33,526 nt of DNA from an uncultured archaeon (GCA_964458565.1 CAYWJO010000029.1:9641-43166), one strand, 5' to 3'. Counted from the stretch's first letter, positions 6,701 to 26,680 are shown. Numbers and translations are program-made. Notes: generated from the sequence alone by a model not told the origin.

Positions 6701-8635
6701 ACATATCAAATCCTAGTTCAAGCGTCCTCGACTAATTACAAGAGCGCTAGTTATCAGGTCACCCTAGAAGTGAGAGAAGCGAATACTCAATTGCGAGCTC
6801 TTAATGATCAAAACATCATTGTTGCAGTTTCAGGTGATGATGTTGAAATCACAGTCTACTTCAATAATACGGACCTTAACAGTCCAATCACGAATGCAAC
6901 AGTCTTCTATGATATCACTGATGCAATCAATGGCTCTCTGTTAGACATTGGTGGAGGATATTATGCTGCAAATATTTCAACGACTTCACTTGAAATTCTT
7001 GATTGGGTACTAACTGTGTCTGCTATCAGACCAGGATTTTCATTTGCATCTTTACAGTTTGAAATTAGTATCTCCAAAATACCAACTGAGGTTGTTGTCA
7101 TTGGTGATGCACTCATAATAGCATATTACGGAGAGAATGTTACATATTACTTTGAGTTTAATGATGCACACAATGGAATAGGTATTGAAAATGCCACTCC
7201 GACATTCACACTCGAAACGGAAACAGGATTCCTAGATGATTTGGGTGATGGTGAGTATTCTCTAACACTAAACACATCTGTTGTGGCTTCTTCTATCACA
7301 CAAAGAAAGGTATACATCACATTCATCAAAGGCACACAATATCGGATATCTTATGTACAAGTCGGGTTAATTGTTGAAGGAATTAGTACTGAGATAATCG
7401 GTGAAGAGGAAGTTGATGTACCGATAGGATTCGACTACACTCAGATGTTTTCATTTAGAGATACAATACATGACATATTACTAGGAGATGCAAATGCAAC
7501 TGCAAGATGGGAATTTGGCTGGATAACAATAACCAGTCACAATAATGGGTCCTATAGCTTTGGTCCTGCTGATACTGGATTGGAGCGACTTGATGTACGT
7601 TCTGAGCCTTATGAAATTACAATTCGAATATTCAAGGCGAATTACAGTGTATCAGAATTGAAATTATACCTCACAATAAGACAAAGACATACACAATTGA
7701 TTGTAGTAGAACCCAATTATCCGGTTTATGCAGGTACGCCCTTCGAAATTCGTCTTACTTACGTTGATACAGATTCAAATATCGGAATATTAGATGCCAT
7801 AAATACAACTGAAACATCGGGTATACTTGAATGGACGGCGTATTCAAATGACCTCCAAAATGGTACGTATATCTTTGGTTTCGTAACTCCTTCAGATGGG
7901 CTTTTTGAACTCACAATTGGCCTTTCAAAGACAGACTATGAAACCTCGTTCATAATCATTACAGTCTTTTCCACAGTGACTCCAGAACAACAGGCAATAG
8001 CTCAGACTTTCCAATATCTTGGAATTGCTGTCATTCTTGGGTCAATGTTAGCTGCTGCTTGGTTTAGACACTTCTCAATTCCACCACTTCTAAGAAAGAC
8101 CCGAAGAATGGTTTCTGCATTACGAGGTGGTACAGTACCATCACCTGCTAACGTAAGAAGCCGTCGAGCAATGATATTAGATGTTATGAATGATGATTTG
8201 AAACCATTGCATATTAGCAAGACATTTGATGATATTTCCTCATCAACCGTGGATGTATCAGTTCTAGATGTTGATCAGCTTCTAGGAGAGTTGCAACAAG
8301 TTGTAGGACTTACTGAGGATGACATAGTCGTTTTACGTAGAGATTTAGACAAAATGCGTCCTAGTGATCGCGCTGGTTTTCTAGGTGAAGTCCTCAAACA
8401 GGAACGCTCCAGAAGAGCTCGCGAGATAGCTGAGGCAAAACTTGCCGAGGATGAAGGACCAGATATCTCGATTGAGAGGAAGCTTTCTGATGAAGAGATT
8501 GAAGACATACGCAATCGACTTCTGAAGATGGGTATAGAACCAGACGAAGTTGAGATAATGGTGGAACAGGCTAAGAACCTCTCAAAAGCTGAGATAGAAG
8601 CATTACTCGATCAGATAGGAGGTGGCGAAGAATGA
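779..8635 (+). CDS. Giant type I membrane surface glycoprotein A (signal peptide, CBM/lectin-like head, 17 Ig/cadherin-like repeats, TM, ~190-aa cytoplasmic tail)
   Basis: 2618-aa ORF. N-terminus MKMKK plus a hydrophobic helix; beta-rich repeats with the pattern 'R.T.L...P.G...I...Y.D.D...I.GA...G.G.Y...IDT..L..G.Y.I...'; dozens of N-x-S/T sequons; TM FQYLGIAVILGSMLAAAWF at about 8009-8065; charged helical tail. Confidence 0.92.
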   Translation: MKMKKGVYLLLVILPMIMGGLVAPMLFQEDVNGTGDTRKVVLETGEEIELAPDEVLYTYRLSDAPTAISGVGDPLLGSEYGVRTDSFSAERMNYDSATQNTDTVNLSVPLGDGWEGYRIDGNVTSITENRTWVENSDFDVNANWTYYTHDEPSSFGPSYTNSINSQWLATGDASGGGCALFDLETGYYYDAGGGLYGYWYDVGDKAYAVQNLTIPRGEVTSLGLSVDYWADINWGILTGFFEVFVSIGDPDNGGTYLWQKAFDAMGTGNSANWLSSGYVEVEPGLVTLPDVNLWLGLRTTALEWWRPDVQPRARMDNLVIYVTAKATPEDVNLQMNGVNVQNVLDGGTPLFGLGTVSFTPSTPWRNDFALANFSWTPTPNPPDPDLDINIDIDADLTAYARRYNVDTISDTEFYTTGENYYIENSTDVNWDTNFYVAIPTGYDSEYSFNISIPYNRDIYHVGAPQSRTTNLLTGWNLGDPGDEAVNVSAYATGAGDLNGFWFLKGTSPNMITNIEVWDEGSSLWTRTMNFRANDITRFDATLPADYESDVVYFDIYDSNGQLWTSLLASVDATGHATTGYVTLDAFNSSVGSWEVHAYVNDEVSNGTVHNVGYFSRGFSITHSTNMAIKYPLGSESSWTVNLTYGELFLLQVRVNDSDNGELLAGGTMTYDWSGGSGSVNDMGTGEYSVTLDTGTLPSNGHYIIDLTWDRSYFDTLARQFHVNVMFTTNLLSSDAPGVDVPLGYDAVMDLRFEDQVKNPIPGAIIVSNWTYDDYSVTPVIGKPGHYTLLIETQNVPIGNYPIRITATKDFYEQRTIILSVQVRELHTSAIPSTSQLSLPVGYSTSFTITYTDTDHSIPISGFASSISCNWSDIHQAGDQNYTVVETVTPGLYEVTLFSKDLDILQIYDVEFHVDKYGAQNQTFIVTVELRTHLTSFFLVDPVSPTPYTGNIEVLVSYFDVDTATGIENGSLVGYNVLITLESPSLPGIIYTVVNGTNAGEYLILIPAEQWGTIGPKVLIVYADWIGPTVKYSDEVLSTSVNIIGTPTDIFLGESPSITQYGENISFTVIYYDVAGDTGVVNSTGPFAGNVLFYIEILTTGQSLTPADISMTEIDPVSRPGEYQIEFDTSLLSGIIGCELRIWFNWTAGQLPLYENQTLLVTVFTTYRQTTVSWSPLPVTPYDELVNMSLNYRDVSTASIILNSPSLDISIQEAITYTLYYDGDITGVFKLEIDTSSWTPGTHVFHIDVVWTGNPFYQNRTSIAIPITVRMRYTELSHSSYAPVQFDNSITIRFTYLDLDDYSSTNMDGGTFTLDAALSSFYSVDDNGDGTYDITLNILEGAFPSTGIYIINASILYGGTPWRYAEDATDFFYLTVTQRRTQLTSDLPDPAPYLTQALITVYYSDDNNDTGITNANVYASCATAIQELELGINYQVQYISNGEYHILINTTALGTFGSYSIVVTANYTGAPFYLQRIRTIVIEVSRRPTSLTVSKSPLNTPFAQNVTFEITIEDTLDSSGIDLDKSKLIVMYSGSILVLNSEYSLLGSNGVYTISINSTLLTSVLVSGLSLQVSLFWGDVEPFYANDTTSTQVTVVSRFTQVEVLSTPGAFIFSNATALFRYSDYLTTNPISGAEVDLACLNTTSFDYWVYDMLDGRYQVLVDTSTLATLGKYYFTANFTWVNQTGLNIPYYQNITLISFSLTINPVSTALNFELISTTVFLGDTIYANVTFINILTGKGIAGSIIMTDWVERYGTSATWTFVSDGIYNLTISTSSLDAQLYSFEINATAGFHQNRTITADVLISSLPINIEVSTWPETPVWGDILVIQANVTDTFKGLPLIGAQVNLTISGTLYTMIEVDDGLYNATIPAEEYDAGEYSITIIASKLNHETRQRTFQIRYLKLDPILIASLDEPLAVSGQSVVLRADYLLDSDSSPITVGQLTFSWQGKSGILNWDSVDEQWIGSVNVADVQIGTYQILVQASSTNYKSASYQVTLEVREANTQLRALNDQNIIVAVSGDDVEITVYFNNTDLNSPITNATVFYDITDAINGSLLDIGGGYYAANISTTSLEILDWVLTVSAIRPGFSFASLQFEISISKIPTEVVVIGDALIIAYYGENVTYYFEFNDAHNGIGIENATPTFTLETETGFLDDLGDGEYSLTLNTSVVASSITQRKVYITFIKGTQYRISYVQVGLIVEGISTEIIGEEEVDVPIGFDYTQMFSFRDTIHDILLGDANATARWEFGWITITSHNNGSYSFGPADTGLERLDVRSEPYEITIRIFKANYSVSELKLYLTIRQRHTQLIVVEPNYPVYAGTPFEIRLTYVDTDSNIGILDAINTTETSGILEWTAYSNDLQNGTYIFGFVTPSDGLFELTIGLSKTDYETSFIIITVFSTVTPEQQAIAQTFQYLGIAVILGSMLAAAWFRHFSIPPLLRKTRRMVSALRGGTVPSPANVRSRRAMILDVMNDDLKPLHISKTFDDISSSTVDVSVLDVDQLLGELQQVVGLTEDDIVVLRRDLDKMRPSDRAGFLGEVLKQERSRRAREIAEAKLAEDEGPDISIERKLSDEEIEDIRNRLLKMGIEPDEVEIMVEQAKNLSKAEIEALLDQIGGGEE
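2642..7975 (+). repeat. Protein-level tandem array of 17 Ig-like repeats (~95-125 aa each) in glycoprotein A
   Basis: Repeat starts read by eye: HST, TTN, LHT, HLT, TPT, RQT, RYT, RRT, RPT, RFT, VST, LPI, LDP, ANT, IPT, IST, RHT. The repeats are diverged at the DNA level. Confidence 0.8.
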
Positions 8636-11600
8636 AACACACCAAGAAACAAGTATTCATCGGATTGCTGATAATGGTCTTCGCATTCCAGATATTAGCA
8701 TTAGCGAATCCACTAGGTGATCCACTCCGTTCGATGGACAACAACTCATCAGCAAGAGACAACTCTACATTCGTTGATATTGGGAACGGAGATATTATTG
8801 AGGTAGGACCAGATGAACAACTACATAGCTTTATTCTCACTGAGAATGGATGGGTAGAATACACGGGAACCTCATCTCACCTATCCGGATCTGAATATGG
8901 TAACAGTACCACCACCACCTCAGGAATAGAGATGAATTATCTTCCAACCAATGTAACGAGCGATTCGTATGTAGACATATCAACTGGTTCTGACTGGGAA
9001 GGATACGAGACTTTAGTTACATTCAATGATGTGACCGAGAATAGGACTTGGATTCAAAATCCAACATTCGATCAGGACGCATCTAGTTGGACAGTTACAA
9101 CTTCAAACACAGGATCTTATAGCACACCTGTTTCTGCTTGGAATTCAACTGGACATGGAACAGGCGATGGATGTATTGATCTTGAGATAAACTCGAATAG
9201 TGGGGGAGCTCCATATTATTATGATGCTGGAGACCGTGCTTATGCAACTCAAACAGCCTCAATAAGCCGAGGAACTGTTGTTTGGGCAGGATTCAGTGCT
9301 GACTATTGGGCAGATACTAGAGATGATGTTCATTATGGAATGACAGGTACTTTTGCGCTTTACGTGAATATAGAAGGTAACTCTATCTGGACGGTTGTAT
9401 TCAGTGATGTTGGACAAGAGGAAACTTGGTATAATTCAGGACTGGTAACTGTACCAACGACTACATTTAATCTTCCCACCGATACAAATGTGAATGTGGA
9501 ATTTGGTCTTGAAAGCCGTGCATCAGTAGGATACGCACCAAATATTTTGCCTGCTGCAAAGTACGATAACTTCATTCTCTATATGAAGACACAAACAACT
9601 CCAAGTAGTATCAATCTCGAGATGGATGGCAACTCCGTGAGTGATTATTCTGGGTATGGTTCAGGATATGTGAATGAGATACCTGCTTCACCATGGACCA
9701 AGAATCCAATCCGACTTAATTTCACTTGGGCACCAACTCCAATCAATCCCATCCCCAACTTAACAATCACAGTAGAGTTTGACGTTACTGTGAATATGTA
9801 TACTCGGAAGTATGATACAAGAACAGTGTCAGAAATCGATGCAACTGCGTATGGAGAAAGATTTGTAGTTCAGAATGGAACTGCAGTTAATTATACAACG
9901 TATTTCTACGCTAACATTCCACCTGGTTACGTGAATCGGTATTTCTATAATATCACGATCCCTGATAACCGTGATGTCACCTTTATTGCTAAACCACTTG
10001 CACCTGGAACGAATCTTACAAGCGGATGGAGTGGAGGTCAATTTGGTGATGGTTATGTTAACGTTTCAGCATATGAGGTTGCTACGGCTGCTGGGCGTTA
10101 TGGATACTGGAGAGTCCTTAGTCAAGGAACCAACATGATAACCGATCTTGAAATTTTTGATCCCTCCACATCAACATGGAAACATTCAGTTGATTTGAGA
10201 GCAGGAAACACATCGCAGATTAGAGTCTATGCAGGCGTAGAATTTGAGGATTCAATTGTAAATATTACTATACTTGACCCGCAGGGTAATTCATGGTTCA
10301 GTGCTAATGCTACCGTTGATGCGACAGGTTATGCAACATCAACACAATTCACCGTTAATGGAGATAATGCTGACGCTGGTAGTTGGATGGTCCTAGCATT
10401 TACAAATGATGTTGGCTCAAATGGGGTTTGGCGGTCTACTGGATTCTTCCAGAGACCATTTACTGTTTCTCACTCATCAGAACTATTGATGCATTATCCG
10501 ACTGATGCAATTGGAACCTGGGTCACCAATGTTACATACGGAGACCTCTTACTCATTATTGTCAAGGCTAATGATACAGATAGTGCGATCTTAGTTGCTG
10601 GGGGCGTATTAGATTACTCATGGGCTGCTGGGTCTGGTCAATTCGATGATTCAGGTAACGGACAGTATACGAAAGTAGTTGATACTTCAACACTGAGTGG
10701 TAAGGGTCAATATGCAATGACACTTACATGGACGCATTCATCGTACGATGTTGCAATAGCAACTCTTACAATCAACGTGAATTATGCGTCAACATTGACC
10801 TCACCAGATTACCCAGGAATATCAGGACCTATTGGATCTGAACAAGATTTCACTGTGAAACACGCAAATGTGAATGGCACGAGTATTCTTGGAGGAATTG
10901 TTACATGTAATTGGTCACAACCTTATACTGTAACTCCTCTTGGACAGGGTTCCTATAGAATCGAGCTTGACACAACCTCACTCCAAATTGGAGTGTACGT
11001 AGTAGAGGTATATGCGAAAGCTTCCTTTGTAGAAGGAACATCGATGATAATGTATATCGAGGTTCGAGAGATCTATAATACGGTCACCTATTCAGCTAAT
11101 CAACTCTCTATTCCTGTAGGAGAATCCGATTCGTTTGTTATCACATGGACTGATACTGATACAGGAAATCCAATACAAGTTGGAGAGAGTTATATAACAT
11201 GTAATTGGACATCGTTCCATTCATCAGGCGAACAGAATTACACAATTGCAGAAGAAACACCTGGTAAATATCGAGTGACAATCTTCACAGAATCAGATGA
11301 TCCACTGACTGTACCTGATGAATATTTCTTAGTAGTGTTTATGGTAAATCGTTCAAACTACCAAAATCATACATTTTCTATTGGAGTACAGATAAGAAGT
11401 CACAACACTTTGTTTATCCTTGATGCTCCCATCGAACAAACGGAGTATGGGACTAACATCGTTGTAAGAGTATTCTATAAGGATACTGATCTCAATTTGG
11501 GAATTAAGAATGATACATATTATGTGCGGATTGTTGTAACGACACCAGAGATAATACTGTGGTACACATCAATTGATTCGATTCTTGGTGATGGGCACTT

Positions 11601-14600
11601 CAACATTACAATCCCAAGTAGTCAATGGGGAGCTATAGGTTGGAGGAATCTCACAATAACAGCGAGTTGGATAGGACCTGTCCAGAAGTATTTCGAGGGA
11701 ACAATAGACACACAGGTTAGGGTTTTAGGAACTGAAACCGATTTGTATCTTGAATTAGCACCATCTGCTACTTACTACCAGAATAACTTCACATTTAGTG
11801 CTGTATACTGGGATGCTATCAACTCAACAAGAATCTCAAGCCCTGGTAACGTGTATATTGTTATCGAACCCATTACAACAGGACATCCAGTCACTCAAGA
11901 TGACTTCATGATTTCAGAATCCAGTACTATACCTGGTACATATGAGTTTGGAATAGATAGCTCGCAATTCTTGAGGTTAGGCACCTTCCGATTTAGGCTG
12001 TCATTACTGTGGTCCAAAGGAGTGTCCCCACTTTATGAAAATCAGACTATGACATTCACACTCATCGTATTAGCTAGACCAACATACATTGATTACAATC
12101 CGGTTCAAACTACGCCATTTAATGAAACTGCTGAATTATCATTCACTTTTGTTGACGCATTTTCTATAACAAAGATTGTGAACTCATCAAGTATTGAGAT
12201 TTCCATAAATGAAGGAACAGTATCGTATACGATTAGCTATAATTCATTAGAGCGTCTTTTCTCAATCTACATCGATACTGAATCTTTAGGAGGAGTTGGA
12301 TCATTTATTCTACACCTCAATTTGACCTATTCTGGAGAACCATTCTATACATCACACCAGAACGATGCCTTTACGGTCACAGTTGAGCTAAGAAATACTC
12401 AGCTCTCTCATCTGTCGTTTGCACCAGCTCAATATGGAAACAATGTCACAATAGAATTTGTATTCACAGATCTTGTATCACAATCTACAAGCGGAATGAC
12501 AGGATCTCTTAGTCTTAATGTCTGGTTGGTAGGATGGTATACAGTCCAACCACAGGGAAATGGTCATTATCTTGTAGAAATAGATACCACGGGATTTGCT
12601 AGCGATGGGTTGTACGTAATAACAGCAACAATTACTTACACAGGAAGCAACTTTGCAGATGACGCAAATGAGGACTTTGGTTTCACAGTATTAAAACGGG
12701 TTACTCAACTTGGATATGATAGCCCAGATCCTACCCCATATCAGTCAAACATAACGTTCATAGTATCATATACAGACGACACAACCGGGGCTGGTATTTC
12801 AGGAGCAAATATTTACGTTAGCTGTGACACATCCGATGATATCTTAGTCAATGGTTCAAATTACTGGTACGAGAATCCATTTGCAGGACAATATATCATA
12901 TACGTTGATTCAGTTGCTTTAGGTGCTCCAAACACCTACTCATTAAATGTCACAGTGACGTGGACAGATACTCCATTCTACGAAACAGTGTCTAGATTTA
13001 TATCATCGCGAGTGACTGAGAGAACCACACAAATTTTGATCACCAAGACACCAGGAGAAACGCCTTACCTTGAGAATGTTACTTTCAGATTCAGATACAA
13101 TGATTTCCTAACTGGTGAGAGTATTAGTATTCAGAAACAACATATCTCTCTAGCATTTGGACCAACATTGATTGAAATTGCCTCAGTTAATTTTAGTTTT
13201 ACATACCAGGATCCATACTACGAAATCAGTTTTAGCTCGGCAGTACTAAGTGAAACATCACTCGGTTCATATACTCTTGAATTAACAATAGATCGTAGTG
13301 GCTCAATACCATATTATGCAATAAGAAGCAAAACAACATCAGCAACTGTCATTGAGAGACCGACCCAGATATTCTTCCCACTCGTGCAGGATACACCATT
13401 TGGTGATACAATAATCATAGATCTCGATTACGTGGATTATCTGACTGGTGGTGGTATTGACGACGCAGATATTCAAGTGACATCACTAAATCTCACAACT
13501 CCTTCGTTCACATTAGTTAGATTAACGGAGGGTTCGTACAAACTCCAAATTCCGAGTAATCAATTTGGTCGATCAGGTATTGTATACTTTGATTTCACAA
13601 TATCCATTTCAGGAGCACCCTTCTATGCAAGCAGATCAGCAACTGATGTAATCGCTACCATACGATTGATTCAGGTTTCACTAACGGCTGATACTCCAGC
13701 ACCCGGTTCTATTCCAGTTGGTGCCCCAATGGTAATTAATCTCACACTCATTGATTATGACCATGATACAACTATAGATAATGCTACAATTTTCACAGAT
13801 TGGGATATTCTTCAGAATAGGAACTATGTTGTGGATGTACTAGGCAATGGCAAGTATAGAGTTACGTTAAACATGACCGGACTTCTGGCACAAGAGTATA
13901 CATTGCACGCCTGGGTTGTGAAGACCAATTATGAACTAGAAATAATCACTTTTAGTGTACAACCAGGTGTTGCCACAATTGAGATACTTCTTGACAGAAC
14001 AACATACTATGTGGATTGGGGACAAGATATCTTTATTGAAGTACAGATTCTTGATCCCTTCTATGGTTCTCCTGTGCCAGGTATGAATGTAACACTCACA
14101 TGGGGTGCAATTGAATACATATTTGCTGATATTGGAGAGGGAATCTATCAATTATTTGTAAGCAGTAGAAACCAAGATGCAGGATTCTATACTCCCACGA
14201 TATCAGCTTCATATGAATTCTATCAGACTCGACAAAAGACATTCAGTTTAGTAGTCACTCGAGCCACAGGTCAGATAATTCCAGAATTATCAACAGTGTA
14301 CGTAGTAGTTGGGACTCAGACTGAATTCACAGTCTACCTGAATGATACGATTTCAAATCTCCCAATTGATGGCGCAACAGTCGAGATGGAGTGGAAAGAG
14401 CACATCATTTCAATGACATATAATGGAACACCAGGATTCTATAATACAACATTAGATGTTGGAGGATTAGCTATTGGAATCTATGATCTGAGCTTCACCG
14501 GAATAGCCACAAATCATGATTTTCTAAAAGTGACTGTTGACGTTTCAGTTACTCCGGTACCAACATCGATATCATTACTCAGTGGCGTAACATCGCCTAG

Positions 14601-16392
14601 ACCGATTTTTGGAGACAGTTTCGATGTCACTATTGGTTACAATGATACATATTATCTTGGATCAATTAGTGGTGCTACAGTTAGCTATCTATTAGGTCCA
14701 ATCGGTGGCACTTTCACTGAAAACCCAGATGGAAGTTACTCAGCTTCAATAGATACAAGTCAGATTGGAGCTCGGGTTCTAAGGTTACAAATCAGGGCTA
14801 CTAAAACAAACTATAGCACCGGTAGTCTAACCCTATTCGTTAATATCCGACCAATTCCCACTGAAGTAACTGTTGATGATAGCTTAAAAGATGGGTACTT
14901 TGGTGATAATGTTACGTTCACATTCCACCTTCGTGATACACACAATGATGAAGATATCATAAACGCATCACTGTTTGTGGAGTGGGACGGAGGGACATAT
15001 GCATTCAGAGAGATCGGAGGAGGATTCTATGAGGTTGAAATAAACCTGAATCAGACAATACCTCGATTATATGAATTATCCGTCATATTCACTCGACTAA
15101 ACTATGCTAGTACATCTAATCGGCCTGGTGTTGTTCTGAGAGCAACTCCTGGAGAGATAGTGGGTCCATCAAGTGTTTCAATACCATTTAACGATTCTAT
15201 CACCATTTCATTCATGGTAAATAATACACTCAGAAATAGTTTAATCTTAGATGTTTCAGGAGCTGCCTATTGGCAGACAGGTACTGTTTCGTTGCTTGAA
15301 CCACAAGAAGATGGAACATTCACTCTCAATATTCCAGATGACGTGCCAATGGGGACGTACAGCATGGATATTGTCTTTGAGAGTGTCTTGTATACCATCT
15401 CACCATTAACTATCGAAGTAGTAGTTAGACCAATAGAAACAGCTTTGTATACGGATGAGCAGCAGATTTTGACTCAACGTGGAGCAGCAATCATATTGAC
15501 AGTAAGTTTTATAGATTTGGATCATGATATTGGTATATCTGGAATTCTACCAAATGTCACCTATGACGACACTCTGGTCATTTACTATCCAGGATATACT
15601 AGTGAGCCATTTGATAATGGTACCTATCAGCTTTATTTCACAGTCATCGGATCAAACCAATTCACAATCAAGATAGGATTTGAGAAGGAAGATTACTTTA
15701 CACCAGAACCATTGATTTTCACCATTAATTCAGACATTACTGAAGAACAGAGATTACAGCAAGTAATCGGTTATCTTGGCGGATTCAGCTTCTTTGTTAT
15801 TGCATTAGCACTGGCTTTGTATGTTAGAATTTGGAGTATTCCTTGGATTATACGTGCTCTGAATAGACTAATCAGTATGCTCAGTAAAGGTAGAGTTCCC
15901 AAACCAGTTGATGTAAGAACTAGAACAGAATTGGTCAGTGAATTTGTAAATGATGAATTAAAGCCTGTTGGAATTCAGAAAGAAATTGAAGATATCACTG
16001 GGTATTCTATCAGAATTGATGTGCCTGAGGTTGATGCATTACTGGAAAGATTAGCAGATATCACCAACCTTGGACCTGATGAACTTGCAGCATTCCGAGC
16101 AGACCTCTCAAGGATGAAAGCTAGTGAAAGACCTGGTTTCCTCAGAGAAGTTATCGAACAAGAAGAAGCTAGACGTGCAGATGCATTAGCTGAAAGAGAT
16201 GGAGTGAGGAAAACTGATAGAGATGCTGAACTCCTCGGAGCACAACCCGAGGAGCTTGAGAGTATCCGCAAGAAACTCCGACAGAAAGGAATGGCAGATT
16301 CTGAAATTGAAATTATAATTCAACAAGCTGAGAATCTTTCGAAGGCTGATCTCGAGGCACTACTAGACAGTCTTGGAATTCGACTCGATTAA
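8632..16392 (+). CDS. Giant type I membrane surface glycoprotein B, full-length paralogue of A
   Basis: 2586-aa ORF. Its ATG overlaps the TGA of A (ATGA) and is preceded by GGAGGTG. Collinear motifs shared with A include GSEYG, WEGY, TENRTW, DYWAD, NF.W.PTP, VNVSAY, VDATG and CNW. TM VIGYLGGFSFFVIALALALYV at about 15763-15825; homologous tail. Confidence 0.92.
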   Translation: MKHTKKQVFIGLLIMVFAFQILALANPLGDPLRSMDNNSSARDNSTFVDIGNGDIIEVGPDEQLHSFILTENGWVEYTGTSSHLSGSEYGNSTTTTSGIEMNYLPTNVTSDSYVDISTGSDWEGYETLVTFNDVTENRTWIQNPTFDQDASSWTVTTSNTGSYSTPVSAWNSTGHGTGDGCIDLEINSNSGGAPYYYDAGDRAYATQTASISRGTVVWAGFSADYWADTRDDVHYGMTGTFALYVNIEGNSIWTVVFSDVGQEETWYNSGLVTVPTTTFNLPTDTNVNVEFGLESRASVGYAPNILPAAKYDNFILYMKTQTTPSSINLEMDGNSVSDYSGYGSGYVNEIPASPWTKNPIRLNFTWAPTPINPIPNLTITVEFDVTVNMYTRKYDTRTVSEIDATAYGERFVVQNGTAVNYTTYFYANIPPGYVNRYFYNITIPDNRDVTFIAKPLAPGTNLTSGWSGGQFGDGYVNVSAYEVATAAGRYGYWRVLSQGTNMITDLEIFDPSTSTWKHSVDLRAGNTSQIRVYAGVEFEDSIVNITILDPQGNSWFSANATVDATGYATSTQFTVNGDNADAGSWMVLAFTNDVGSNGVWRSTGFFQRPFTVSHSSELLMHYPTDAIGTWVTNVTYGDLLLIIVKANDTDSAILVAGGVLDYSWAAGSGQFDDSGNGQYTKVVDTSTLSGKGQYAMTLTWTHSSYDVAIATLTINVNYASTLTSPDYPGISGPIGSEQDFTVKHANVNGTSILGGIVTCNWSQPYTVTPLGQGSYRIELDTTSLQIGVYVVEVYAKASFVEGTSMIMYIEVREIYNTVTYSANQLSIPVGESDSFVITWTDTDTGNPIQVGESYITCNWTSFHSSGEQNYTIAEETPGKYRVTIFTESDDPLTVPDEYFLVVFMVNRSNYQNHTFSIGVQIRSHNTLFILDAPIEQTEYGTNIVVRVFYKDTDLNLGIKNDTYYVRIVVTTPEIILWYTSIDSILGDGHFNITIPSSQWGAIGWRNLTITASWIGPVQKYFEGTIDTQVRVLGTETDLYLELAPSATYYQNNFTFSAVYWDAINSTRISSPGNVYIVIEPITTGHPVTQDDFMISESSTIPGTYEFGIDSSQFLRLGTFRFRLSLLWSKGVSPLYENQTMTFTLIVLARPTYIDYNPVQTTPFNETAELSFTFVDAFSITKIVNSSSIEISINEGTVSYTISYNSLERLFSIYIDTESLGGVGSFILHLNLTYSGEPFYTSHQNDAFTVTVELRNTQLSHLSFAPAQYGNNVTIEFVFTDLVSQSTSGMTGSLSLNVWLVGWYTVQPQGNGHYLVEIDTTGFASDGLYVITATITYTGSNFADDANEDFGFTVLKRVTQLGYDSPDPTPYQSNITFIVSYTDDTTGAGISGANIYVSCDTSDDILVNGSNYWYENPFAGQYIIYVDSVALGAPNTYSLNVTVTWTDTPFYETVSRFISSRVTERTTQILITKTPGETPYLENVTFRFRYNDFLTGESISIQKQHISLAFGPTLIEIASVNFSFTYQDPYYEISFSSAVLSETSLGSYTLELTIDRSGSIPYYAIRSKTTSATVIERPTQIFFPLVQDTPFGDTIIIDLDYVDYLTGGGIDDADIQVTSLNLTTPSFTLVRLTEGSYKLQIPSNQFGRSGIVYFDFTISISGAPFYASRSATDVIATIRLIQVSLTADTPAPGSIPVGAPMVINLTLIDYDHDTTIDNATIFTDWDILQNRNYVVDVLGNGKYRVTLNMTGLLAQEYTLHAWVVKTNYELEIITFSVQPGVATIEILLDRTTYYVDWGQDIFIEVQILDPFYGSPVPGMNVTLTWGAIEYIFADIGEGIYQLFVSSRNQDAGFYTPTISASYEFYQTRQKTFSLVVTRATGQIIPELSTVYVVVGTQTEFTVYLNDTISNLPIDGATVEMEWKEHIISMTYNGTPGFYNTTLDVGGLAIGIYDLSFTGIATNHDFLKVTVDVSVTPVPTSISLLSGVTSPRPIFGDSFDVTIGYNDTYYLGSISGATVSYLLGPIGGTFTENPDGSYSASIDTSQIGARVLRLQIRATKTNYSTGSLTLFVNIRPIPTEVTVDDSLKDGYFGDNVTFTFHLRDTHNDEDIINASLFVEWDGGTYAFREIGGGFYEVEINLNQTIPRLYELSVIFTRLNYASTSNRPGVVLRATPGEIVGPSSVSIPFNDSITISFMVNNTLRNSLILDVSGAAYWQTGTVSLLEPQEDGTFTLNIPDDVPMGTYSMDIVFESVLYTISPLTIEVVVRPIETALYTDEQQILTQRGAAIILTVSFIDLDHDIGISGILPNVTYDDTLVIYYPGYTSEPFDNGTYQLYFTVIGSNQFTIKIGFEKEDYFTPEPLIFTINSDITEEQRLQQVIGYLGGFSFFVIALALALYVRIWSIPWIIRALNRLISMLSKGRVPKPVDVRTRTELVSEFVNDELKPVGIQKEIEDITGYSIRIDVPEVDALLERLADITNLGPDELAAFRADLSRMKASERPGFLREVIEQEEARRADALAERDGVRKTDRDAELLGAQPEELESIRKKLRQKGMADSEIEIIIQQAENLSKADLEALLDSLGIRLD
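10471..15735 (+). repeat. Protein-level tandem array of 17 Ig-like repeats in glycoprotein B
   Basis: Repeat starts: HSS, YAS, IYN, HNT, TET, RPT, RNT, RVT, RTT, RPT, IQV, GVA, ATG, VPT, IPT, TPG, IET. Each unit resembles the same-numbered unit of A. Confidence 0.8.
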
Positions 16393-16442: not shown

Positions 16443-17468
16443 TCAATCAGGTACTGTATTATCCGATGATTTTCGTCTTCTGCGTGTCACTATGGTTAAT
16501 GCACCAAATCCAACAATGACGCTGAACCAAAGAGTCACAAATCTAATCAATAGAGTTGCGGTGCTTGCGATGGTAAGAGTTATTCCAAGAATTGTAGTCA
16601 TCACTGCAACTGCAAATGTTTCATATCCTCCGAGGCCTCCTGGAAGAAATATGAGAATAGCTCCAACCGACGATGCCGCAGCATGAATGAATGTAACTTG
16701 CGATAGTAGTATCAACGAGGCCATGGTTAGTGAGGGTAGTCCAACCCCAGTCAATATACTCAACAATAGCCAGAGTTCAAGACATTCCATAAACCAACCA
16801 GGAATGCTGATTGCAGTTCCAACAAGCATTGGTTTTGGAGAGAGCGTTTTAAGCATTGTATCCTCTACAAGGTTCATGCTATTCTGAAAGCGCTTCAATG
16901 GACCCAAGCCTGTGAGCTTGTCTAAGACTTTCCTGTAGAATTTCTCATTACTGAGTACAAGTGCCCCAACAAAGAGCATACCTCCAACAATGAGTAAGAG
17001 AATCAGTTCGTTTCCAACAGATATTCCAATTATGAATGAGAAGAGAGCGAGTAAAACCATCGCAAGTAGATCAGTGACTCGTTCTGATATAACGACAGGA
17101 GCAGTCTTTGCAATTGGAGTTCCATCTATCTCATTTATAAAATACCCTTTGATTACCTCACCAACTTTTCCAGGAGTGACTGTAAGTGTGAAACCAGCCA
17201 AGAAAACACTGAAGCTATCTCTGTGTGATAAGTATACATCGATTCGATGGAGGTAATATTGCCATTTGATATACCTTATTGCATAATTGAGAAAAGATAA
17301 TGCCATCATCGTTGGTAGAATCCACCAAAGCTCAAGAGATGCTAGTAATCCAACAACCTGGTCGATTTGACCAATCCAAGCAATGATTAGATAGATAATC
17401 ACGCCAAGCAGAACAAAGACAACAACCTTTGTTGGGCTGATGAACGTGGAGTCTGCCTTGTCATTCAC
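16443..17468 (-). CDS. UPF0104 / lysylphosphatidylglycerol-synthase-TM-like polytopic membrane protein (putative flippase or lipid-linked sugar transferase)
   Basis: Motifs R..KW..YL, TPGKVGE..K, SER..DLL, PGGLG.YE and IRF.TLWF, with about 8 hydrophobic helices. The likely start is GTG at 17468, overlapping the PHP stop (GTGA), rather than 17549. Confidence 0.85.
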   Translation of the reverse strand: MNDKADSTFISPTKVVVFVLLGVIIYLIIAWIGQIDQVVGLLASLELWWILPTMMALSFLNYAIRYIKWQYYLHRIDVYLSHRDSFSVFLAGFTLTVTPGKVGEVIKGYFINEIDGTPIAKTAPVVISERVTDLLAMVLLALFSFIIGISVGNELILLLIVGGMLFVGALVLSNEKFYRKVLDKLTGLGPLKRFQNSMNLVEDTMLKTLSPKPMLVGTAISIPGWFMECLELWLLLSILTGVGLPSLTMASLILLSQVTFIHAAASSVGAILIFLPGGLGGYETFAVAVMTTILGITLTIASTATLLIRFVTLWFSVIVGFGALTIVTRRRRKSSDNTVPD

Positions 17469-18154
17469 ACTTTGGGTATCGGCCACTTTGAATACCTCCG
17501 AATTCTTTGCCAAATCGAACTGGGAATATGAACCCAGAAGAAGGAACAATGACCACTGATTTGTGTGTGTCCTTTCCTTAGCTCCTCGTAAACATCTTCA
17601 GGAGTCTCAATACCCTGAAGCCATGTCTTTGCATGACCAATTTCTAAGAATGAATGTGCGTCGCTACCAGCAGTCATGGGTTTCCTCAGTCGCTCCGCAA
17701 GCCTCTGGGCTTGAGTATTGAATAAGTTGATTATGTTTCTTGAATTGATTCCTTCAATAAGATCAACATGTTTCTTTATGATTACCTCAGAGAGTCCTTT
17801 CCTAATTGCAGTGTGTTTACGTGTAATATCATAAGGATGAGGAAGAATTACGAATCCATTCTGGTCATGAATATCCTCTGCAATTTCAACAAATGATCGA
17901 TTCTCAATGGGTTCACTAATGAACAAACCTATAATTTCTCCCGAGTCAGTCGATTTGAATTCACAGGCGGGAATTAGAAATCTTTCATCTCGGATAATTG
18001 TCTTACGTAAAGAAGGTCTCCAATGCTCAGTCAATGCGATTCCTTTTAGTCCAACTCGCTTCATCTGTTTAAAGAGTGTTCTTGGATTATTCAGCCCATC
18101 CTTAGAGTGAATGGTATGAAAGTGGAAATCGAAAGCCGATAATTCTTGACTCAT
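17465..18154 (-). CDS. PHP-domain metal-dependent phosphoesterase
   Basis: PHP metal ligand motifs DFHFHTIHSKDG, TEH, PHP, EGIN and GSDAH. Confidence 0.9.
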   Translation of the reverse strand: MSQELSAFDFHFHTIHSKDGLNNPRTLFKQMKRVGLKGIALTEHWRPSLRKTIIRDERFLIPACEFKSTDSGEIIGLFISEPIENRSFVEIAEDIHDQNGFVILPHPYDITRKHTAIRKGLSEVIIKKHVDLIEGINSRNIINLFNTQAQRLAERLRKPMTAGSDAHSFLEIGHAKTWLQGIETPEDVYEELRKGHTQISGHCSFFWVHIPSSIWQRIRRYSKWPIPKV

Positions 18155-18166
18155 TCATTCACCGCG

Positions 18167-19153
18167 CTACGGGATTATTATTGATTGAAACAGTGTTTCA
18201 AGTGTTGTGATTATTGGGTCCCAGAAAAAGAGAGTCACAAACAATGCCAACACAAATAGAATTCCCCCAATCAATATACCTTTATCTTTAATGGCAAGAT
18301 GAGGTTTTCTACCAACTGGCGAACCTATTTGAATCAAGTAGATGTAACGCATCAAAATTCCGGCAGCTATAGGAACAGTCAGCATTACAGGCTGTGTAGC
18401 CATTCTATCTCCAAATTGATTGTAGCAATATAGTGCATAGAAAAGAACAACCCAAGTTCCTGACATCGTTATACCTTGATTGAGTATTTCATCAGTATAC
18501 TGCTTGAAAACCGGTTTGTGAAGAGGAGCTTCATCGCCTAATAACTGGAGCTCATTCTTTCGTTTTCCAAATGCTAGTACAAGTGCAACGAAGAAGATAC
18601 CGATTATTAACCATGAGGTGAATGGAATAGGATTACCAAGCGCATCTCTGATCAGGAATGTTCCAGCAACAGCTCGGATAATGAATCCTACTGCAATAAT
18701 ACACACATCAACGACTGCCCAATTTCTGAGTTTCCAACTATAGAGTTGTGAATTTAATATATAGAATAGAATAGATAGAAGAAAAAAGCCACTACCTAGA
18801 ATGAATAACGAGATGATTAGACTAATAGCATAGAGAGCAATAGCTAATATAAGAGCAAATTCTTTCGAAACGCGACCTGCTGGGAGAGGTCGTTCCATCT
18901 TCTCAGGGTGTGCAGCATCTTTTTCGATATCAAAGAGGTCATTTAGGATATAACCAGCTGATGAAACAGCACAGAAAACCAGAAAACCCAAAATGAGAGG
19001 CGGATATTTTGTCAAGTCGAAAACGGCTGGTATTTGTGTCCATGGCCATTCAAGTGGTTGAGGAACCTCAACAAACACAATAGCAACAAAAACGAGGAGA
19101 TTCTTGTACCATTGATGAGGCCTCATTAAACGAAGATAATCTTTCAATGCCAT
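18167..19153 (-). CDS. ubiA: UbiA-superfamily protein, decaprenyl-phosphate phosphoribosyltransferase (Rv3806c/DPPR synthase) type
   Basis: RPHQWYKNLLVF, YILNDLFDIEKDAAHPEK..RPL.AG, DV..IA.GF..RA.AG and LAFGKRKNEL are characteristic of the phosphoribosyltransferase branch of UbiA. Multiple TM helices. Confidence 0.85.
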   Translation of the reverse strand: MALKDYLRLMRPHQWYKNLLVFVAIVFVEVPQPLEWPWTQIPAVFDLTKYPPLILGFLVFCAVSSAGYILNDLFDIEKDAAHPEKMERPLPAGRVSKEFALILAIALYAISLIISLFILGSGFFLLSILFYILNSQLYSWKLRNWAVVDVCIIAVGFIIRAVAGTFLIRDALGNPIPFTSWLIIGIFFVALVLAFGKRKNELQLLGDEAPLHKPVFKQYTDEILNQGITMSGTWVVLFYALYCYNQFGDRMATQPVMLTVPIAAGILMRYIYLIQIGSPVGRKPHLAIKDKGILIGGILFVLALFVTLFFWDPIITTLETLFQSIIIP

Positions 19154-19167
19154 TGCTATAATTCCTA

Positions 19168-20250
19168 TTACTTAGTTGAGTACGACTTCCAGAGTTCGCC
19201 CCACTCGGTCTCTTCGAAGAACCATTTGACCCATTTCTTACCTCGAAGTGGAAGCCAAAGCCCATCATGATAGAGACCTGAAAGCTGAGTTGGTAACCAC
19301 ATGAGGGGAGACCTAAACATGAACCTTTCCATTCCTGGAAATTTCAGAAAACCACGATTAAATGCAATTACAGGACTCTTGCCAGATCGGAGATTGAGAT
19401 TGGGAAGATCTTTCCACGTTTCAAAATCACCAACTAATTCTATTTTCTCAGGGTCAGATTCACCCAAGCCTAGCTCGGAAGCAATCTGGAGTTTATGAAC
19501 GCACTCCTGAGGTATACCCATTAAACGGGTTTGGACAGTATCAGCAGCAACCATGTCAGACGTAGCTATCAAAAGATTGCCAACTCTTGGGATCATTGTT
19601 CGTGGACCGGGTCCATCGCCAACAATCGTACCATCAGTAAGGACAAATTCAGAATGAGAGATATGTTTCTGTAATAGCAATAAATCGACGAGGACTTCAT
19701 GTATTTTCAGATGTGCGAGATGACGTTTCTTGGTAAGATATAGACCAAAGGAATCCTTCATTGCACCGGTCATTTGTGTGTGGCCATGAGTCTTTATTGT
19801 AGGAAGATGGACGATGTTTGTATTGAATATCTCTTTTGGAGCGATAATCTCACCGAATATCTTTTCCAAAACTAGTGTATCTTGATCTAGTTCGACATCA
19901 ACATATTCTGCTTTGATAAGAGGAAGGAAGTGTATCCTGTGCTTCTTGATGACAGGATACCAATTATTTCCGTGAACACCAGCGTAAATGTTTGTAACTA
20001 CGGTCTCATTTTCAACTGCTTGTATTCGTCTATTATCAAACCCATCAGAAATAAGCTTCTGAAGGAATCCGTCAAAGATGTATGGATTCGTAGAACATGC
20101 GGGATAGAATTTACTCCATGAAAGGTTGAGTTTGATTGTCGTCATCACGTTTTTTGAAATGTGCTTGTCATATTCAGCTAAATCCATGATACGAGCAATA
20201 TCATCAAATACAGTCTTTGGACTTGTTTTAACAACCGCAACTTTAGGCAT
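19168..20250 (-). CDS. DUF362-family protein without a ferredoxin domain
   Basis: KLNL...ST.P, LPTIKTH...TGAMKD.FG, DGT..GDGPGP and D.VAAD match the DUF362 pattern. There is no CxxCxxC motif. Confidence 0.8.
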   Translation of the reverse strand: MPKVAVVKTSPKTVFDDIARIMDLAEYDKHISKNVMTTIKLNLSWSKFYPACSTNPYIFDGFLQKLISDGFDNRRIQAVENETVVTNIYAGVHGNNWYPVIKKHRIHFLPLIKAEYVDVELDQDTLVLEKIFGEIIAPKEIFNTNIVHLPTIKTHGHTQMTGAMKDSFGLYLTKKRHLAHLKIHEVLVDLLLLQKHISHSEFVLTDGTIVGDGPGPRTMIPRVGNLLIATSDMVAADTVQTRLMGIPQECVHKLQIASELGLGESDPEKIELVGDFETWKDLPNLNLRSGKSPVIAFNRGFLKFPGMERFMFRSPLMWLPTQLSGLYHDGLWLPLRGKKWVKWFFEETEWGELWKSYSTK

Positions 20251-20355
20251 TATTCACGTCAACCTCGGGAGATATTTTAGGATTAACACGCACCTATGTT
20301 TGTAAACAATTGTATATACCTTATGAAGATAGCTTAATGTAAAAGGACGTACTGT

Positions 20356-21192
20356 TCAAATTTTGACCTGTTGGACTTTCAGATTCTTATCAAGATGAAC
20401 AATCTTCGGTGTTACTCTTCCCATATACGATGCACTGAACACGCTAACAAGTCTTCCATTAAAAAATAACTTAACGCCATCCTGGTATACTTCATGTGCT
20501 CTAATCATTAGTCGATAGTTCAATGAATCCATGAATTCATTGAATGCTAATTCTCCAAACACAAGTGATTTACCCCCTCGAGGATTTGGATTGAAATAGA
20601 ATTCACCTTCTGCTGGATCATTCCACATCAGCTGGAATGCTGTCGAGTCGATAAATTCTCTATTAAAGCGATCAATATCTTTTATCTGTTTTAGAGATTG
20701 GACAGACCTTGGAACACCTCCATGGCAAGCAAAGACAGAACTTGGATTTGAACCAGCAAGTGGTAGTACTGAGAACATATCGCAATAACTATGAAAGATG
20801 TCATCTGAGTAGTTTGCTTTGATTACATCTCTAAAGCCATAGATTGAAGCCACGCTTTCGGATTCATGATTTCCTCTTAGCATAGTAACTCTATCAGGAA
20901 ATTTTAACACTAAAGAGGAAACCAAATTAATTGTTTCAATCTGAGCTGGACCTCGATCAGCATAGTCACCTAAGAATACTAGATATGAGTGTGATTTCAA
21001 AAATATATCCTTAATCTTAAGAAGCGAAGTTAACTCCCCGTGTAAATCTCCAACGAATAAAACATTCTCTTTTGGAATTGAAATAACATTAGGACTCTTC
21101 TTGTAATGGTCAAAAAGCATACCATTTAGTTGAAGAATATCTTCACTGGTTATTGCACGGTTTCCTTCAAACACCTTCTGAATTACACTCAT
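20356..21192 (-). CDS. PPP-family serine/threonine protein phosphatase (PP1/PP2A-like)
   Basis: GDLHG, GDYADRG, LRGNHE, HGG, WNDP, NPRG, RAHE and VFSASY. Confidence 0.92.
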   Translation of the reverse strand: MSVIQKVFEGNRAITSEDILQLNGMLFDHYKKSPNVISIPKENVLFVGDLHGELTSLLKIKDIFLKSHSYLVFLGDYADRGPAQIETINLVSSLVLKFPDRVTMLRGNHESESVASIYGFRDVIKANYSDDIFHSYCDMFSVLPLAGSNPSSVFACHGGVPRSVQSLKQIKDIDRFNREFIDSTAFQLMWNDPAEGEFYFNPNPRGGKSLVFGELAFNEFMDSLNYRLMIRAHEVYQDGVKLFFNGRLVSVFSASYMGRVTPKIVHLDKNLKVQQVKI

Positions 21193-21204: not shown

Positions 21205-21708
21205 TTATTCCCAGTTCATTATCTTAAATGCTAGTTCTATTGCTTCTCTAGGATTCTTAGCTGGAATAATAGTATCAGTACGACGATTATCTATCTTCTC
21301 ACCAGCAAGTCTACCAGACCATCCACCCGTATTGGCCAAAGCTATCAAAGGACGATCTGAGAACCAAGCGATTGCCATTTCGCTTAGTGTTCCTGCAGAT
21401 CCATCAACTGATACCACTACATCACCTGCCTTTGCAACGAGAAAATTACGAGCATATCCGAGACCTGTAGGAATTACTATATCCAAATAATCATTAGATG
21501 CATCTTTTGAATCAAAAGGTGTGATTCCAATTGTCAGCCCTCCCTCTGATTTAGCACCCCTACAAGCAGATTCCATGATGCCACCCATGCCACCGCAGAC
21601 AAGAACAGCATTCTTCTTCGCTATCTCGCGGCCAAGTTCCTCAGCAATTCGGAGGTTCTCATCTGAACTCTCAGAACCACCTATTATTGAAATCATCCGA
21701 CGTCGCAT
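21205..21708 (-). CDS. LOG/SLOG-family protein (TIGR00725 type; putative nucleotide phosphoribohydrolase)
   Basis: CGGMGGIME...GA...GG.TIGI.P, TGLGYARN and G.AGTLSE motifs. Confidence 0.88.
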   Translation of the reverse strand: MRRRMISIIGGSESSDENLRIAEELGREIAKKNAVLVCGGMGGIMESACRGAKSEGGLTIGITPFDSKDASNDYLDIVIPTGLGYARNFLVAKAGDVVVSVDGSAGTLSEMAIAWFSDRPLIALANTGGWSGRLAGEKIDNRRTDTIIPAKNPREAIELAFKIMNWE

Positions 21709-26149: not shown

Positions 26150-26680
26150 ATGAGCATTTTAACAATACCAAGTGTTGTTCTTGCTATACTTCTCTGCATA
26201 CTCGCGCTATTGATATGGATAGCTTGGCCTTCAGTGATTGGTGCACCATGGGTGCCAACACCAAATAAGAGAGTGCGAGGTATGTTGGAATTAGCTCAAG
26301 TGAGCAAAGATGATATACTATACGATTTGGGGTCTGGTGATGGACGCATCATTATAATGGCAGCTGAGGAATTTGGTGCTCAATCCGTTGGTATCGAAGT
26401 AGACCCAATAAGAATTATGTTATCAAAGTTCAGAATAAAGCGTCGTGGTCTTGAAAAGAGTGTGAAAGTAATTCGTGGAAATTTCTTTCACATCAGCATT
26501 AAAGACGCAACAGTTGTTACTCTTTATCAAGGTCATGGAATTAATCAGAGAATCGCAGAGAAACTGGCTAATGATTTGACTCCAGGTTCAAGGATTGTTT
26601 CCTACAAATTTATCTTTGAAGACTGGATACCCATCCAAACAAATATTGAAGACTCACTCTACCTCTATCTAGTCCAATGA
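26150..26680 (+). CDS. Membrane-anchored class I SAM-dependent methyltransferase (FAM173/aKMT-like)
   Basis: N-terminal TM helix, then GAPWVPTP, YDLGSGDGRI, GIEVDP, ATVVTLY and PGSRIVS. Confidence 0.85.
   Translation: MSILTIPSVVLAILLCILALLIWIAWPSVIGAPWVPTPNKRVRGMLELAQVSKDDILYDLGSGDGRIIIMAAEEFGAQSVGIEVDPIRIMLSKFRIKRRGLEKSVKVIRGNFFHISIKDATVVTLYQGHGINQRIAEKLANDLTPGSRIVSYKFIFEDWIPIQTNIEDSLYLYLVQ

Follow-up and report, generated by a model that had tools for sequence, protein, structure and literature searches.

A candidate operon for a lipid-linked pentofuranose donor in an Asgard archaeon pairs a DPPR-synthase-type UbiA protein with a DUF362 protein of predicted LarA fold

Lipid-linked pentofuranose donors are known from the synthesis of mycobacterial arabinan and, since 2024, also from that of Gram-negative O-antigen side chains. 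In Citrobacter youngae O1 and O2, the system is formed by the PPPRS-PRP protein (ORF15), a MATE flippase (ORF14) and the GT-C enzyme GT136 (ORF12), with an SDR epimerase encoded by ORF13; in such three-component systems auxiliary epimerases, of the SDR type or DprE1/E2, turn ribose into xylose or arabinose (Kelly et al., 2024; PMC11127046). Here, we describe a four-gene unit for a DUF362 protein, a UbiA-family protein, a PHP-family phosphoesterase and a UPF0104 membrane protein, found in a 33,526-bp stretch of DNA (hereafter, the window) from an uncultured archaeon (GCA_964458565.1, CAYWJO010000029.1:9641-43166). The window belongs to contig C29 of a genome of 3.7 Mb in 93 contigs, 93% complete, and the closest relatives of its proteins come from Candidatus Thorarchaeota (Asgard). 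The operon is best read as an archaeal variant of the known systems: in our judgement it probably serves to make a lipid-linked pentofuranose donor and to flip it out for extracytoplasmic glycosylation, DUF362 being probably an epimerase and possibly dependent on a nickel-pincer cofactor.

The list of open reading frames (ORFs) bears out the compact layout reported in a preliminary description of the window. All four genes are co-oriented on the minus strand, with gaps of 14 bp (DUF362/UbiA) and 12 bp (UbiA/PHP), and the UPF0104 gene overlaps the PHP stop by 4 bp, given a GTG start at 17468 (GTGA); UPF0104 orthologues elsewhere likewise start just past the PHP stop. The coordinates are collected in Table 1.

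A role of the UbiA protein as a polyprenyl-phosphate phosphoribosyltransferase dependent on 5-phosphoribosyl 1-pyrophosphate (PRPP) is strongly supported by its sequence. Its four top NCBIfam models are three DPPR synthases and a HAD-fused relative (E 2e-54 to 5e-38), the best being decaprenyl-phosphate phosphoribosyltransferase (NF008977, 185 bits) and the next model outside this group standing at 4e-19. The protein aligns over its full length with Mycobacterium tuberculosis Rv3806c (PDB 8j8j, E 6e-27), and reaches E 6e-6 with DGGGP synthase in the same PDB comparison. In Rv3806c, the pyrophosphate is bound by R22, K87, R90, Y138 and K143, magnesium by N73 and D77, the 5-phosphate by K28, Y70 and Y157, and the lipid phosphate by K191 (PMC10994848). 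A pairwise alignment showed that 11 of 13 such PRPP-, Mg- and lipid-phosphate-binding residues are kept in UbiA: nine are identical (R22, K28, Y70, N73, D77, K87, R90, Y138 and K191) and two are substituted, K143R and Y157F, the latter being found also in some mycobacteria (PMC10994848); Q135 and K208 lie one position out of register. The phosphoribose-binding residues, including K28 and Y70, are without counterpart in ordinary UbiA enzymes (PMC10994848), and their retention argues for PRPP as the substrate here. The gene is the only one of its type in its genome. Thus, the protein groups with Rv3806c, as had been suggested, and its assignment as a DGGGP synthase or a quinone prenyltransferase is rejected on account of the binding residues and of the gene neighbours described below.

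The second constant element is the DUF362 subtype encoded next to UbiA. When one genome was scanned for each prokaryotic species, at least 586 stretches were found to encode relatives of this subtype, and the loci examined are the best 80 of them. The full four-gene cassette recurs in about 27 Thorarchaeota-type loci, and the order SLOG, Metallophos, DUF362, UbiA, PHP, UPF0104 is found in all of those with enough flanking sequence; in a relative at 60% identity, the four-gene unit alone is kept and the surroundings differ. At 43-48% identity, UbiA adjoins DUF362 in about 41 of 53 loci, from archaea (Woese-, Nano-, Parv-, Aenigm- and Altiarchaeota, DPANN lineages included, and Methanosarcinales) as well as from bacteria (Aminicenantes, Acidobacteriota, Clostridia, Planctomycetota, Actinomycetota and others). 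Among 41 Asgard genomes, the DUF362 subtype is present in 10 and UbiA in nine, so that presence or absence is equal in 40; all nine genomes with UbiA also carry the DUF362 subtype, both genes being on one contig, and the tenth DUF362 gene lies at a contig end. Because the order is kept in the Thorarchaeota-type loci and the two genes are adjacent across both prokaryotic domains, the arrangement is far beyond chance. The linkage of the DUF362 subtype to a DPPR-type UbiA therefore extends, as had been anticipated, far beyond the genome of origin. However, the cassette of four genes is seen only in Thorarchaeota-type genomes, and the conserved core is the DUF362 and UbiA pair, not all four genes. 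Likewise, the pentosylation pathway put forward as archaeal in the preliminary description is not specific to archaea, and its kind was described in bacteria in 2024 (PMC11127046).

The genes around the pair point to glycan synthesis. When 139 nearest-neighbour ORFs of the distant loci were scanned against Pfam, the commonest families were PMT_2 GT-C transferases (11) and LPG_synthase_TM (PF03706; seven), followed by GT1 (six), HAD (four) and PHP (four); PAP2, BacA, STT3/AglB, YfhO, Wzx-like and EamA proteins are also encoded beside the pair at single loci. The phosphatase position is occupied at related loci by a PHP, a PAP2 or a HAD gene, and in some relatives a PAP2 gene directly follows the pair; PAP2 is the family of Rv3807c, which adjoins Rv3806c. 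The roles of phosphatase, flippase and GT-C transferase thus recur, each filled by different families in different lineages, which matches what is expected of a pathway for a lipid-linked sugar donor and agrees with the three-component pentofuranose systems of Kelly et al. (2024; PMC11127046). In the genome of origin, candidate GT-C genes are found on contigs C25 and C2. A separate arrangement is seen in Acidobacteriota (L068:9081-12911), where a small STAS protein precedes the pair and a conserved protein of about 400 residues with no Pfam match and two GT1 glycosyltransferases follow it; the same arrangement stands at the same position in L073, L085, L092, L095 and L098.

DUF362 had been proposed to take the place of DprE1/DprE2. 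The ALO domain of DprE1 (PF04030) was not found in the genome of origin, at its 93% completeness, and gave one weak match across 50 other genomes with the DUF362 subtype, in a search that detected the Corynebacterium glutamicum control; DprE2, a generic SDR, was not searched for. DprE1 is thus essentially absent from genomes with the DUF362 subtype, in keeping with that part of the proposal.

Each of the remaining proteins of the cassette can be given a candidate role. The PHP protein matches PHP_C with 54 bits (cut-off 21) and the PHP N-terminus with 26.0 bits, just under the cut-off of 26.4, and the motifs HFH, EH, HP and DAH, which we take to be the metal-binding His/Asp/Glu motifs of the PHP family, are visible in its translation; it is a candidate for the 5-phosphatase of lipid-linked phosphoribose. 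The UPF0104 protein is hydrophobic throughout and matches PF03706 over its full length (E 5e-36; 125 bits, Pfam cut-off 33) and TIGR00374 (76 bits, cut-off 43). Domains of this type are best known for lipid flipping in MprF, and the protein is a candidate flippase of the lipid-linked sugar. An earlier study predicted that UPF0104 proteins act as flippases in archaeal glycosylation (Makarova et al., 2015; PMC5898192).

The structural relationship of DUF362 to LarA, the nickel-dependent lactate racemase, which was suggested in the preliminary description, proved correct at the level of structure prediction. An AlphaFold2 model built from a 35-sequence alignment (A1) reached a predicted local distance difference test score (pLDDT) of 93, and replaced a single-sequence model with a pLDDT of 33, which was unusable. 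The ten best Foldseek matches of the model are all LarA-superfamily structures, with probability 1.0, and a second aligner gave nine LarA-superfamily entries at Z 14.0-16.1 over residues 8-341, the next fold being at Z 6. As modelled, DUF362 thus has the two-domain fold of LarA, and DUF362 and the LarA N-domain share one Pfam clan (PMC11770544). The relationship is distant in sequence: the window protein matches PF04015 only, with no match to PF09861 (Lar_N), and a PDB sequence search gave no match with the A1 profile and one chance-level match (E 0.36) with the single protein.

The key residues of LarA are K184, to which the cofactor is tethered, H200, a ligand of nickel, R75, which binds the phosphate of the cofactor, and the catalytic residues H108 and H174 (PMC11770544). 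Three residues that are invariant in the DUF362 subtype, H155, K165 and H180, fall on LarA H174, K184 and H200, both against a profile of 32 Asgard LarA homologues and in a profile-profile alignment, each of which is weak alone and both of which are sequence alignments only. A direct comparison (hhalign) of A1 with the three LarA homologues of the genome of origin gave no usable alignment, so that the comparison came to depend on a broader profile and on bridging proteins. Two DUF362 proteins that bear a ferredoxin domain (PF04015, 145 and 172 bits) also match Lar_N over the same segment, one of them above the Lar_N cut-off; they show a His, a Lys at +10 and a His at +26, which is the spacing of LarA, and the DUF362 profile places these residues on H155, K165 and H180. 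These bridging proteins give stronger support to the His-Lys-His equivalence. In both (L168:754-1854 and L167:651-1748, minus strand), a two-[4Fe-4S] ferredoxin domain stands directly after the putative nickel-ligand His; such proteins connect DUF362 with LarA and point to redox chemistry at the site that both have in common. The equivalents of H155, K165 and H180 are also kept in three other DUF362 paralogues of the genome of origin. Elsewhere in DUF362, E80, N81 and T83 are invariant near the S46/V84 region discussed below, and many other His, Asp and Glu residues are invariant.

Some Thorarchaeota orthologues of DUF362 carry an intein of about 520 residues between K153 and T154 (...HLPTIK/C...HN/THGHT...; Table 1), so that the insertion directly precedes the His aligned with LarA His174; inteins are usually found at functionally critical sites. 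The C-terminal tail (residues 286-360, the last 75) is specific to the subtype and rich in aromatic and basic residues (8% W, 9% F, 16% K+R). DUF362 has no transmembrane segment, and the tail may be an anchor to the membrane surface. Eight proteins of the genome of origin match the DUF362 family, one of which (25 bits) is a LarA homologue on contig C20 that cross-matches the model; the window copy alone belongs to the UbiA-linked subtype. A literature search found no functional study of DUF362, PF04015 or COG2006.

The cofactor question was approached through the distribution of the lar genes. The genome of origin has larC and larE but also three LarA_N homologues, and therefore cannot decide it. 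Among the 50 other genomes with the subtype, larC is present in 33, 22 of which are without LarA. In the Aenigmatarchaeota (the phylum of locus L063), for which 121 genomes were sampled, larC is found in seven, none of which has LarA, and in four of eight genomes with a DUF362 orthologue versus three of 113 without (Fisher p 3e-4, relatedness uncorrected). In DPANN, larE accompanies larC in four of five genomes tested. In 110 published Acidobacteriota genomes tested for the orthologue, larC and LarA (an unpublished one, G256, being excluded), larC occurs in 38 of 39 with the orthologue versus 44 of 71 without; among those lacking LarA, the figures are 17 of 17 and 18 of 42 (p 2e-5, relatedness uncorrected). 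As an observation apart, five DPANN genomes of 0.7-1.0 Mb (G053, G075, G090, G091 and G153) have larC, mostly with larE, and lack LarA; larE adjoins larC in G153 and G090. In one locus, a different DUF362 paralogue lies 2 kb from larC.

Taken together, these data fit a pathway in five steps. UbiA would transfer 5-phosphoribose from PRPP to polyprenyl phosphate, like Rv3806c and the Citrobacter PPPRS, the lipid carrier being polyprenyl- or dolichyl-phosphate; the PHP metallo-phosphoesterase would take off the 5-phosphate; the soluble, LarA-fold DUF362, its tail perhaps docking on the membrane, would alter the lipid-linked ribose; the MprF-type flippase-domain protein would carry the donor across to the outer side of the membrane; and a GT-C transferase whose gene lies outside the window would add the pentose to a glycan or glycoprotein. 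In the third step, in which DUF362 would stand in for DprE1/DprE2 or the SDR epimerase of known systems, the likeliest chemistry would be the inversion of a ring hydroxyl (at C2, giving arabinose, or at C3, giving xylose) via hydride transfer and a transient keto intermediate. Epimerisation is ranked first because inversion of a hydroxyl on a furanoside requires a hydride acceptor, which a LarA-like site provides; retention of counterparts of LarA His174, Lys184 and His200 suggests the nickel-pincer nucleotide as a possible cofactor. Of the roles assigned in the preliminary description, that of a non-orthologous phosphatase for PHP fits the replacement of PHP by PAP2 or HAD at related loci, and, of flippase or transferase, the former suits UPF0104 and the published prediction, both as candidate functions. 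A sugar-modifying enzyme agrees with the constant UbiA partner and the LarA fold of DUF362, but its part as an epimerase, the sugar made (arabinose, xylose or other) and the cofactor are what we infer from these. The more specific proposal, that the DUF362 subtype is a nickel-pincer enzyme inverting a ring hydroxyl of polyprenyl-phospho-ribose, is made tentatively, and we hold it to be possible rather than probable.

A number of observations weigh against this interpretation, in whole or in part. The score of UbiA falls below the equivalog cut-off of NF008977 (185 vs 234 bits), as for a distant member, and Gln135 of Rv3806c is unaligned; there is no GT-C gene in the window, and many loci with the pair lack phosphatase and flippase genes. 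For the cofactor, LarA Arg75 and His108 have no equivalent in DUF362, aligning to S46 and V84 in a profile alignment of low confidence, and the nickel-pincer enzymes known to us all act on 2-hydroxy acids, none on sugars. The co-occurrence tests ignore kinship among the genomes. DUF362 taken family-wide is found in 44 of 121 Aenigmatarchaeota genomes, only five of which have larC, versus two of the 77 others (p 0.1, a weak association). Searches reaching about 8 kb from the pair, in about 90 loci, met no lar gene, and those reaching about as far from larC, in 20 genomes, met neither the subtype nor its UbiA partner. Furthermore, larC was not found in 17 of the 50 genomes with the orthologue, namely in 11 of 16 DPANN genomes, three Planctomycetota, two Methanosarcinales metagenome-assembled genomes (MAGs) and one Bacillota MAG. 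One of these, G051, is a complete Phycisphaerales chromosome of 6.2 Mb; it encodes three LarA_N homologues with no LarC (PF01969) match, so that either its LarC is too divergent to detect or the LarA homologues do without it, and a missing larC is therefore of limited value.

Several of these points would be explained if the pathway were the same and DUF362 carried out a non-epimerase step on lipid-linked phosphoribose, its histidine-rich site serving as a plain metal centre with no nickel-pincer cofactor: the transfer of a substituent, one-way oxidation to a keto-pentose, or a hydrolysis, such as removal of the 5-phosphate at loci where no separate phosphatase is seen. The many genomes in which larC was not seen, the lack of a phosphatase beside the pair in the majority of the distant loci, the many invariant His, Asp and Glu residues and the absence of LarA Arg75 and His108 all speak for such a step. 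However, the trio that is kept corresponds to the cofactor-tethering Lys, the nickel-ligand His and a catalytic His of LarA, and larC tracks the orthologue in two phyla; we find this alternative rather unlikely. Its variant in which DUF362 is the phosphatase of the pathway is unlikely because separate PHP, PAP2 or HAD phosphatases adjoin the pair in several lineages, the window included.

Two further explanations change the substrate of UbiA. DUF362 could act before it, making or altering a soluble PRPP-like donor so that a pre-modified sugar is loaded; the strict pairing is silent on the order of the enzymes, and a protein with no transmembrane segment would suit that place. Yet the residues with which Rv3806c binds PRPP are kept in UbiA, so that PRPP itself is the likelier donor, alteration of PRPP is expected to be harmful (an argument made in PMC11127046) and the aromatic and basic tail specific to the subtype suggests work at the membrane surface, all of which makes this order of events quite improbable. 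Least probable of all, and by our estimate very improbable, is that UbiA is an ordinary prenyltransferase in an operon that modifies membrane lipids or a quinone-like compound, UPF0104 flipping the modified lipid. The protein is indeed a member of the UbiA superfamily with scores under the DPPR-synthase equivalog cut-offs, the MprF precedent for UPF0104 concerns lipids, and some DPANN loci have B12-radical-SAM and amine-oxidase genes in the vicinity of the pair; but DPPR synthases make up all of its best matches, DGGGP synthase trailing by 20 orders of magnitude, the residues that bind phosphoribose are retained and the commonest neighbours of the pair are GT-C transferases and other glycan genes. 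Synthesis and export of a lipid-linked pentofuranose donor thus accounts best for the operon.

Around the operon, the A+T-rich spacer upstream of DUF362 is probably its own, putative, promoter region, and the genes beyond the spacer do not keep their side or strand in the relative at 60% identity. The SLOG and Metallophos genes found there lie upstream of the cassette in nearly all Thorarchaeota-type loci, with the exception of L047, where both are on the opposite strand and farther off. They were excluded as members of the operon, both having moved away in the 60%-identity relative, and their membership in the pathway is uncertain. A SLOG homologue 40% identical to that of the window is encoded about 3 kb from larE-larC at a Bacillota locus (L153:6002-6433). 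On the other side, two giant genes on the plus strand (779-16392), whose products of 2618 and 2586 residues have no Pfam domain, are convergent with the operon; the second, giant B, has its stop codon ending 50 bp from that of the flippase gene. The same convergence is seen for giant B orthologues in 19 Thorarchaeota-type loci, although the giants are only 42-58% identical; therefore, the giant surface proteins are plausible acceptors of the sugar, by association only, and a possible indication of what the pentose may decorate. Elsewhere in the window (26150-26680, plus strand), a methyltransferase of 176 residues has the DOT1 histone-methyltransferase family as its best Pfam match (E 1e-8), in an Asgard genome.

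Table 1. Coordinates of the operon, of the features around it in the window and of intein-bearing DUF362 orthologues at other loci.
Feature	Coordinates	Strand	Basis or remarks
LPG_synthase_TM/UPF0104 membrane protein (MprF flippase-domain family)	16443..17468	-	PF03706, TIGR00374 'flippase-like'
PHP-family metal phosphoesterase, 229 aa	17465..18154	-	PHP_C and PHP N-terminus, CehA/McbA metallohydrolase domain
UbiA-family protein, DPPR synthase/PPPRS type, 328 aa	18167..19153	-	PF01040
DUF362 protein, 360 aa	19168..20250	-	PF04015, E 9e-20
A+T-rich spacer, 105 bp, upstream of DUF362	20251..20355	-	read from sequence
Metallophos phosphoesterase	20356-21192	-	Pfam/NCBIfam matches
SLOG/LOG-like TIGR00725 protein	21205-21708	-	Pfam/NCBIfam matches
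Giant surface protein B, 2586 aa	8632..16392	+	no Pfam domains
Intein-bearing DUF362 orthologues	L048:640-3342	+	also G037:C125 (932-aa frame), proteins P0063, P0065

The locus would bring the logic of lipid-linked pentofuranose donors to an Asgard archaeon, with three of the roles taken by unrelated protein families, and the two-gene core of PPPRS and DUF362 is found in hundreds of genomes of both domains. This gives the widespread DUF362 proteins a concrete, assayable hypothesis, the first testable job for the family. Should the subtype turn out to be a nickel-pincer enzyme that inverts a ring hydroxyl of polyprenyl-phospho-ribose, no earlier enzyme of that kind would be known outside the 2-hydroxy-acid racemases, or with a lipid-linked sugar as its substrate; the finding would give the large DUF362 family a first function, widen the known chemistry of the cofactor and provide an answer, at least in part, to the presence of larB, larC and larE in genomes that lack LarA, including those of DPANN archaea of 0.7-1 Mb.

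With the three-component system of Citrobacter, the operon would share a PRPP-dependent UbiA-type synthase, a candidate 5-phosphatase, a candidate flippase, use of the product by a GT-C transferase outside the cell and an auxiliary enzyme that changes the pentose. It differs in that the phosphatase would be a separate PHP protein and not a fused HAD domain, the candidate flippase is an MprF-type UPF0104 protein and not a MATE protein, the GT-C gene is encoded in the system there whereas none is present in the operon, the auxiliary enzyme would be a LarA-fold DUF362 protein that is a constant partner, unlike the optional SDR or DprE1/E2 enzymes, and the host is an Asgard archaeon. The mycobacterial pathway to decaprenyl-phospho-arabinose (Rv3806c, Rv3807c, DprE1/DprE2, Rv3789) has a homologous first enzyme, whose substrate-binding residues are kept in UbiA, and the order of steps proposed here is the same: phosphoribosyl transfer, dephosphorylation, inversion of the sugar and flipping. 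No DprE1 (FAD_binding_4 plus ALO domain) was found here in the search for its ALO domain, and the candidate phosphatase and flippase are from other families; some relatives come closer to mycobacteria in having a PAP2 gene beside the pair, as Rv3807c is beside Rv3806c. With LarA, DUF362 shares the predicted two-domain fold (Z 14-16), the Pfam clan (CL0471), the equivalents of His174, Lys184 and His200 and, in two phyla, co-occurrence with larC. Unlike LarA, it shows no PF09861 match and no Arg75 or His108, has an extra aromatic C-terminal tail, is found in many hosts in which larC was not seen, and its likely substrate is a lipid-linked sugar and not a 2-hydroxy acid. Finally, the UPF0104 protein has the membrane domain of AglD-type and stand-alone UPF0104 proteins (arCOG00899), for which flipping of lipid-linked sugars is likewise predicted and which are also encoded near PMT- or STT3-like genes (PMC5898192); in contrast to AglD, the domain stands alone here, and is coupled to a phosphoribosyl-lipid synthase instead of a GT2 dolichyl-phosphate hexose synthase.

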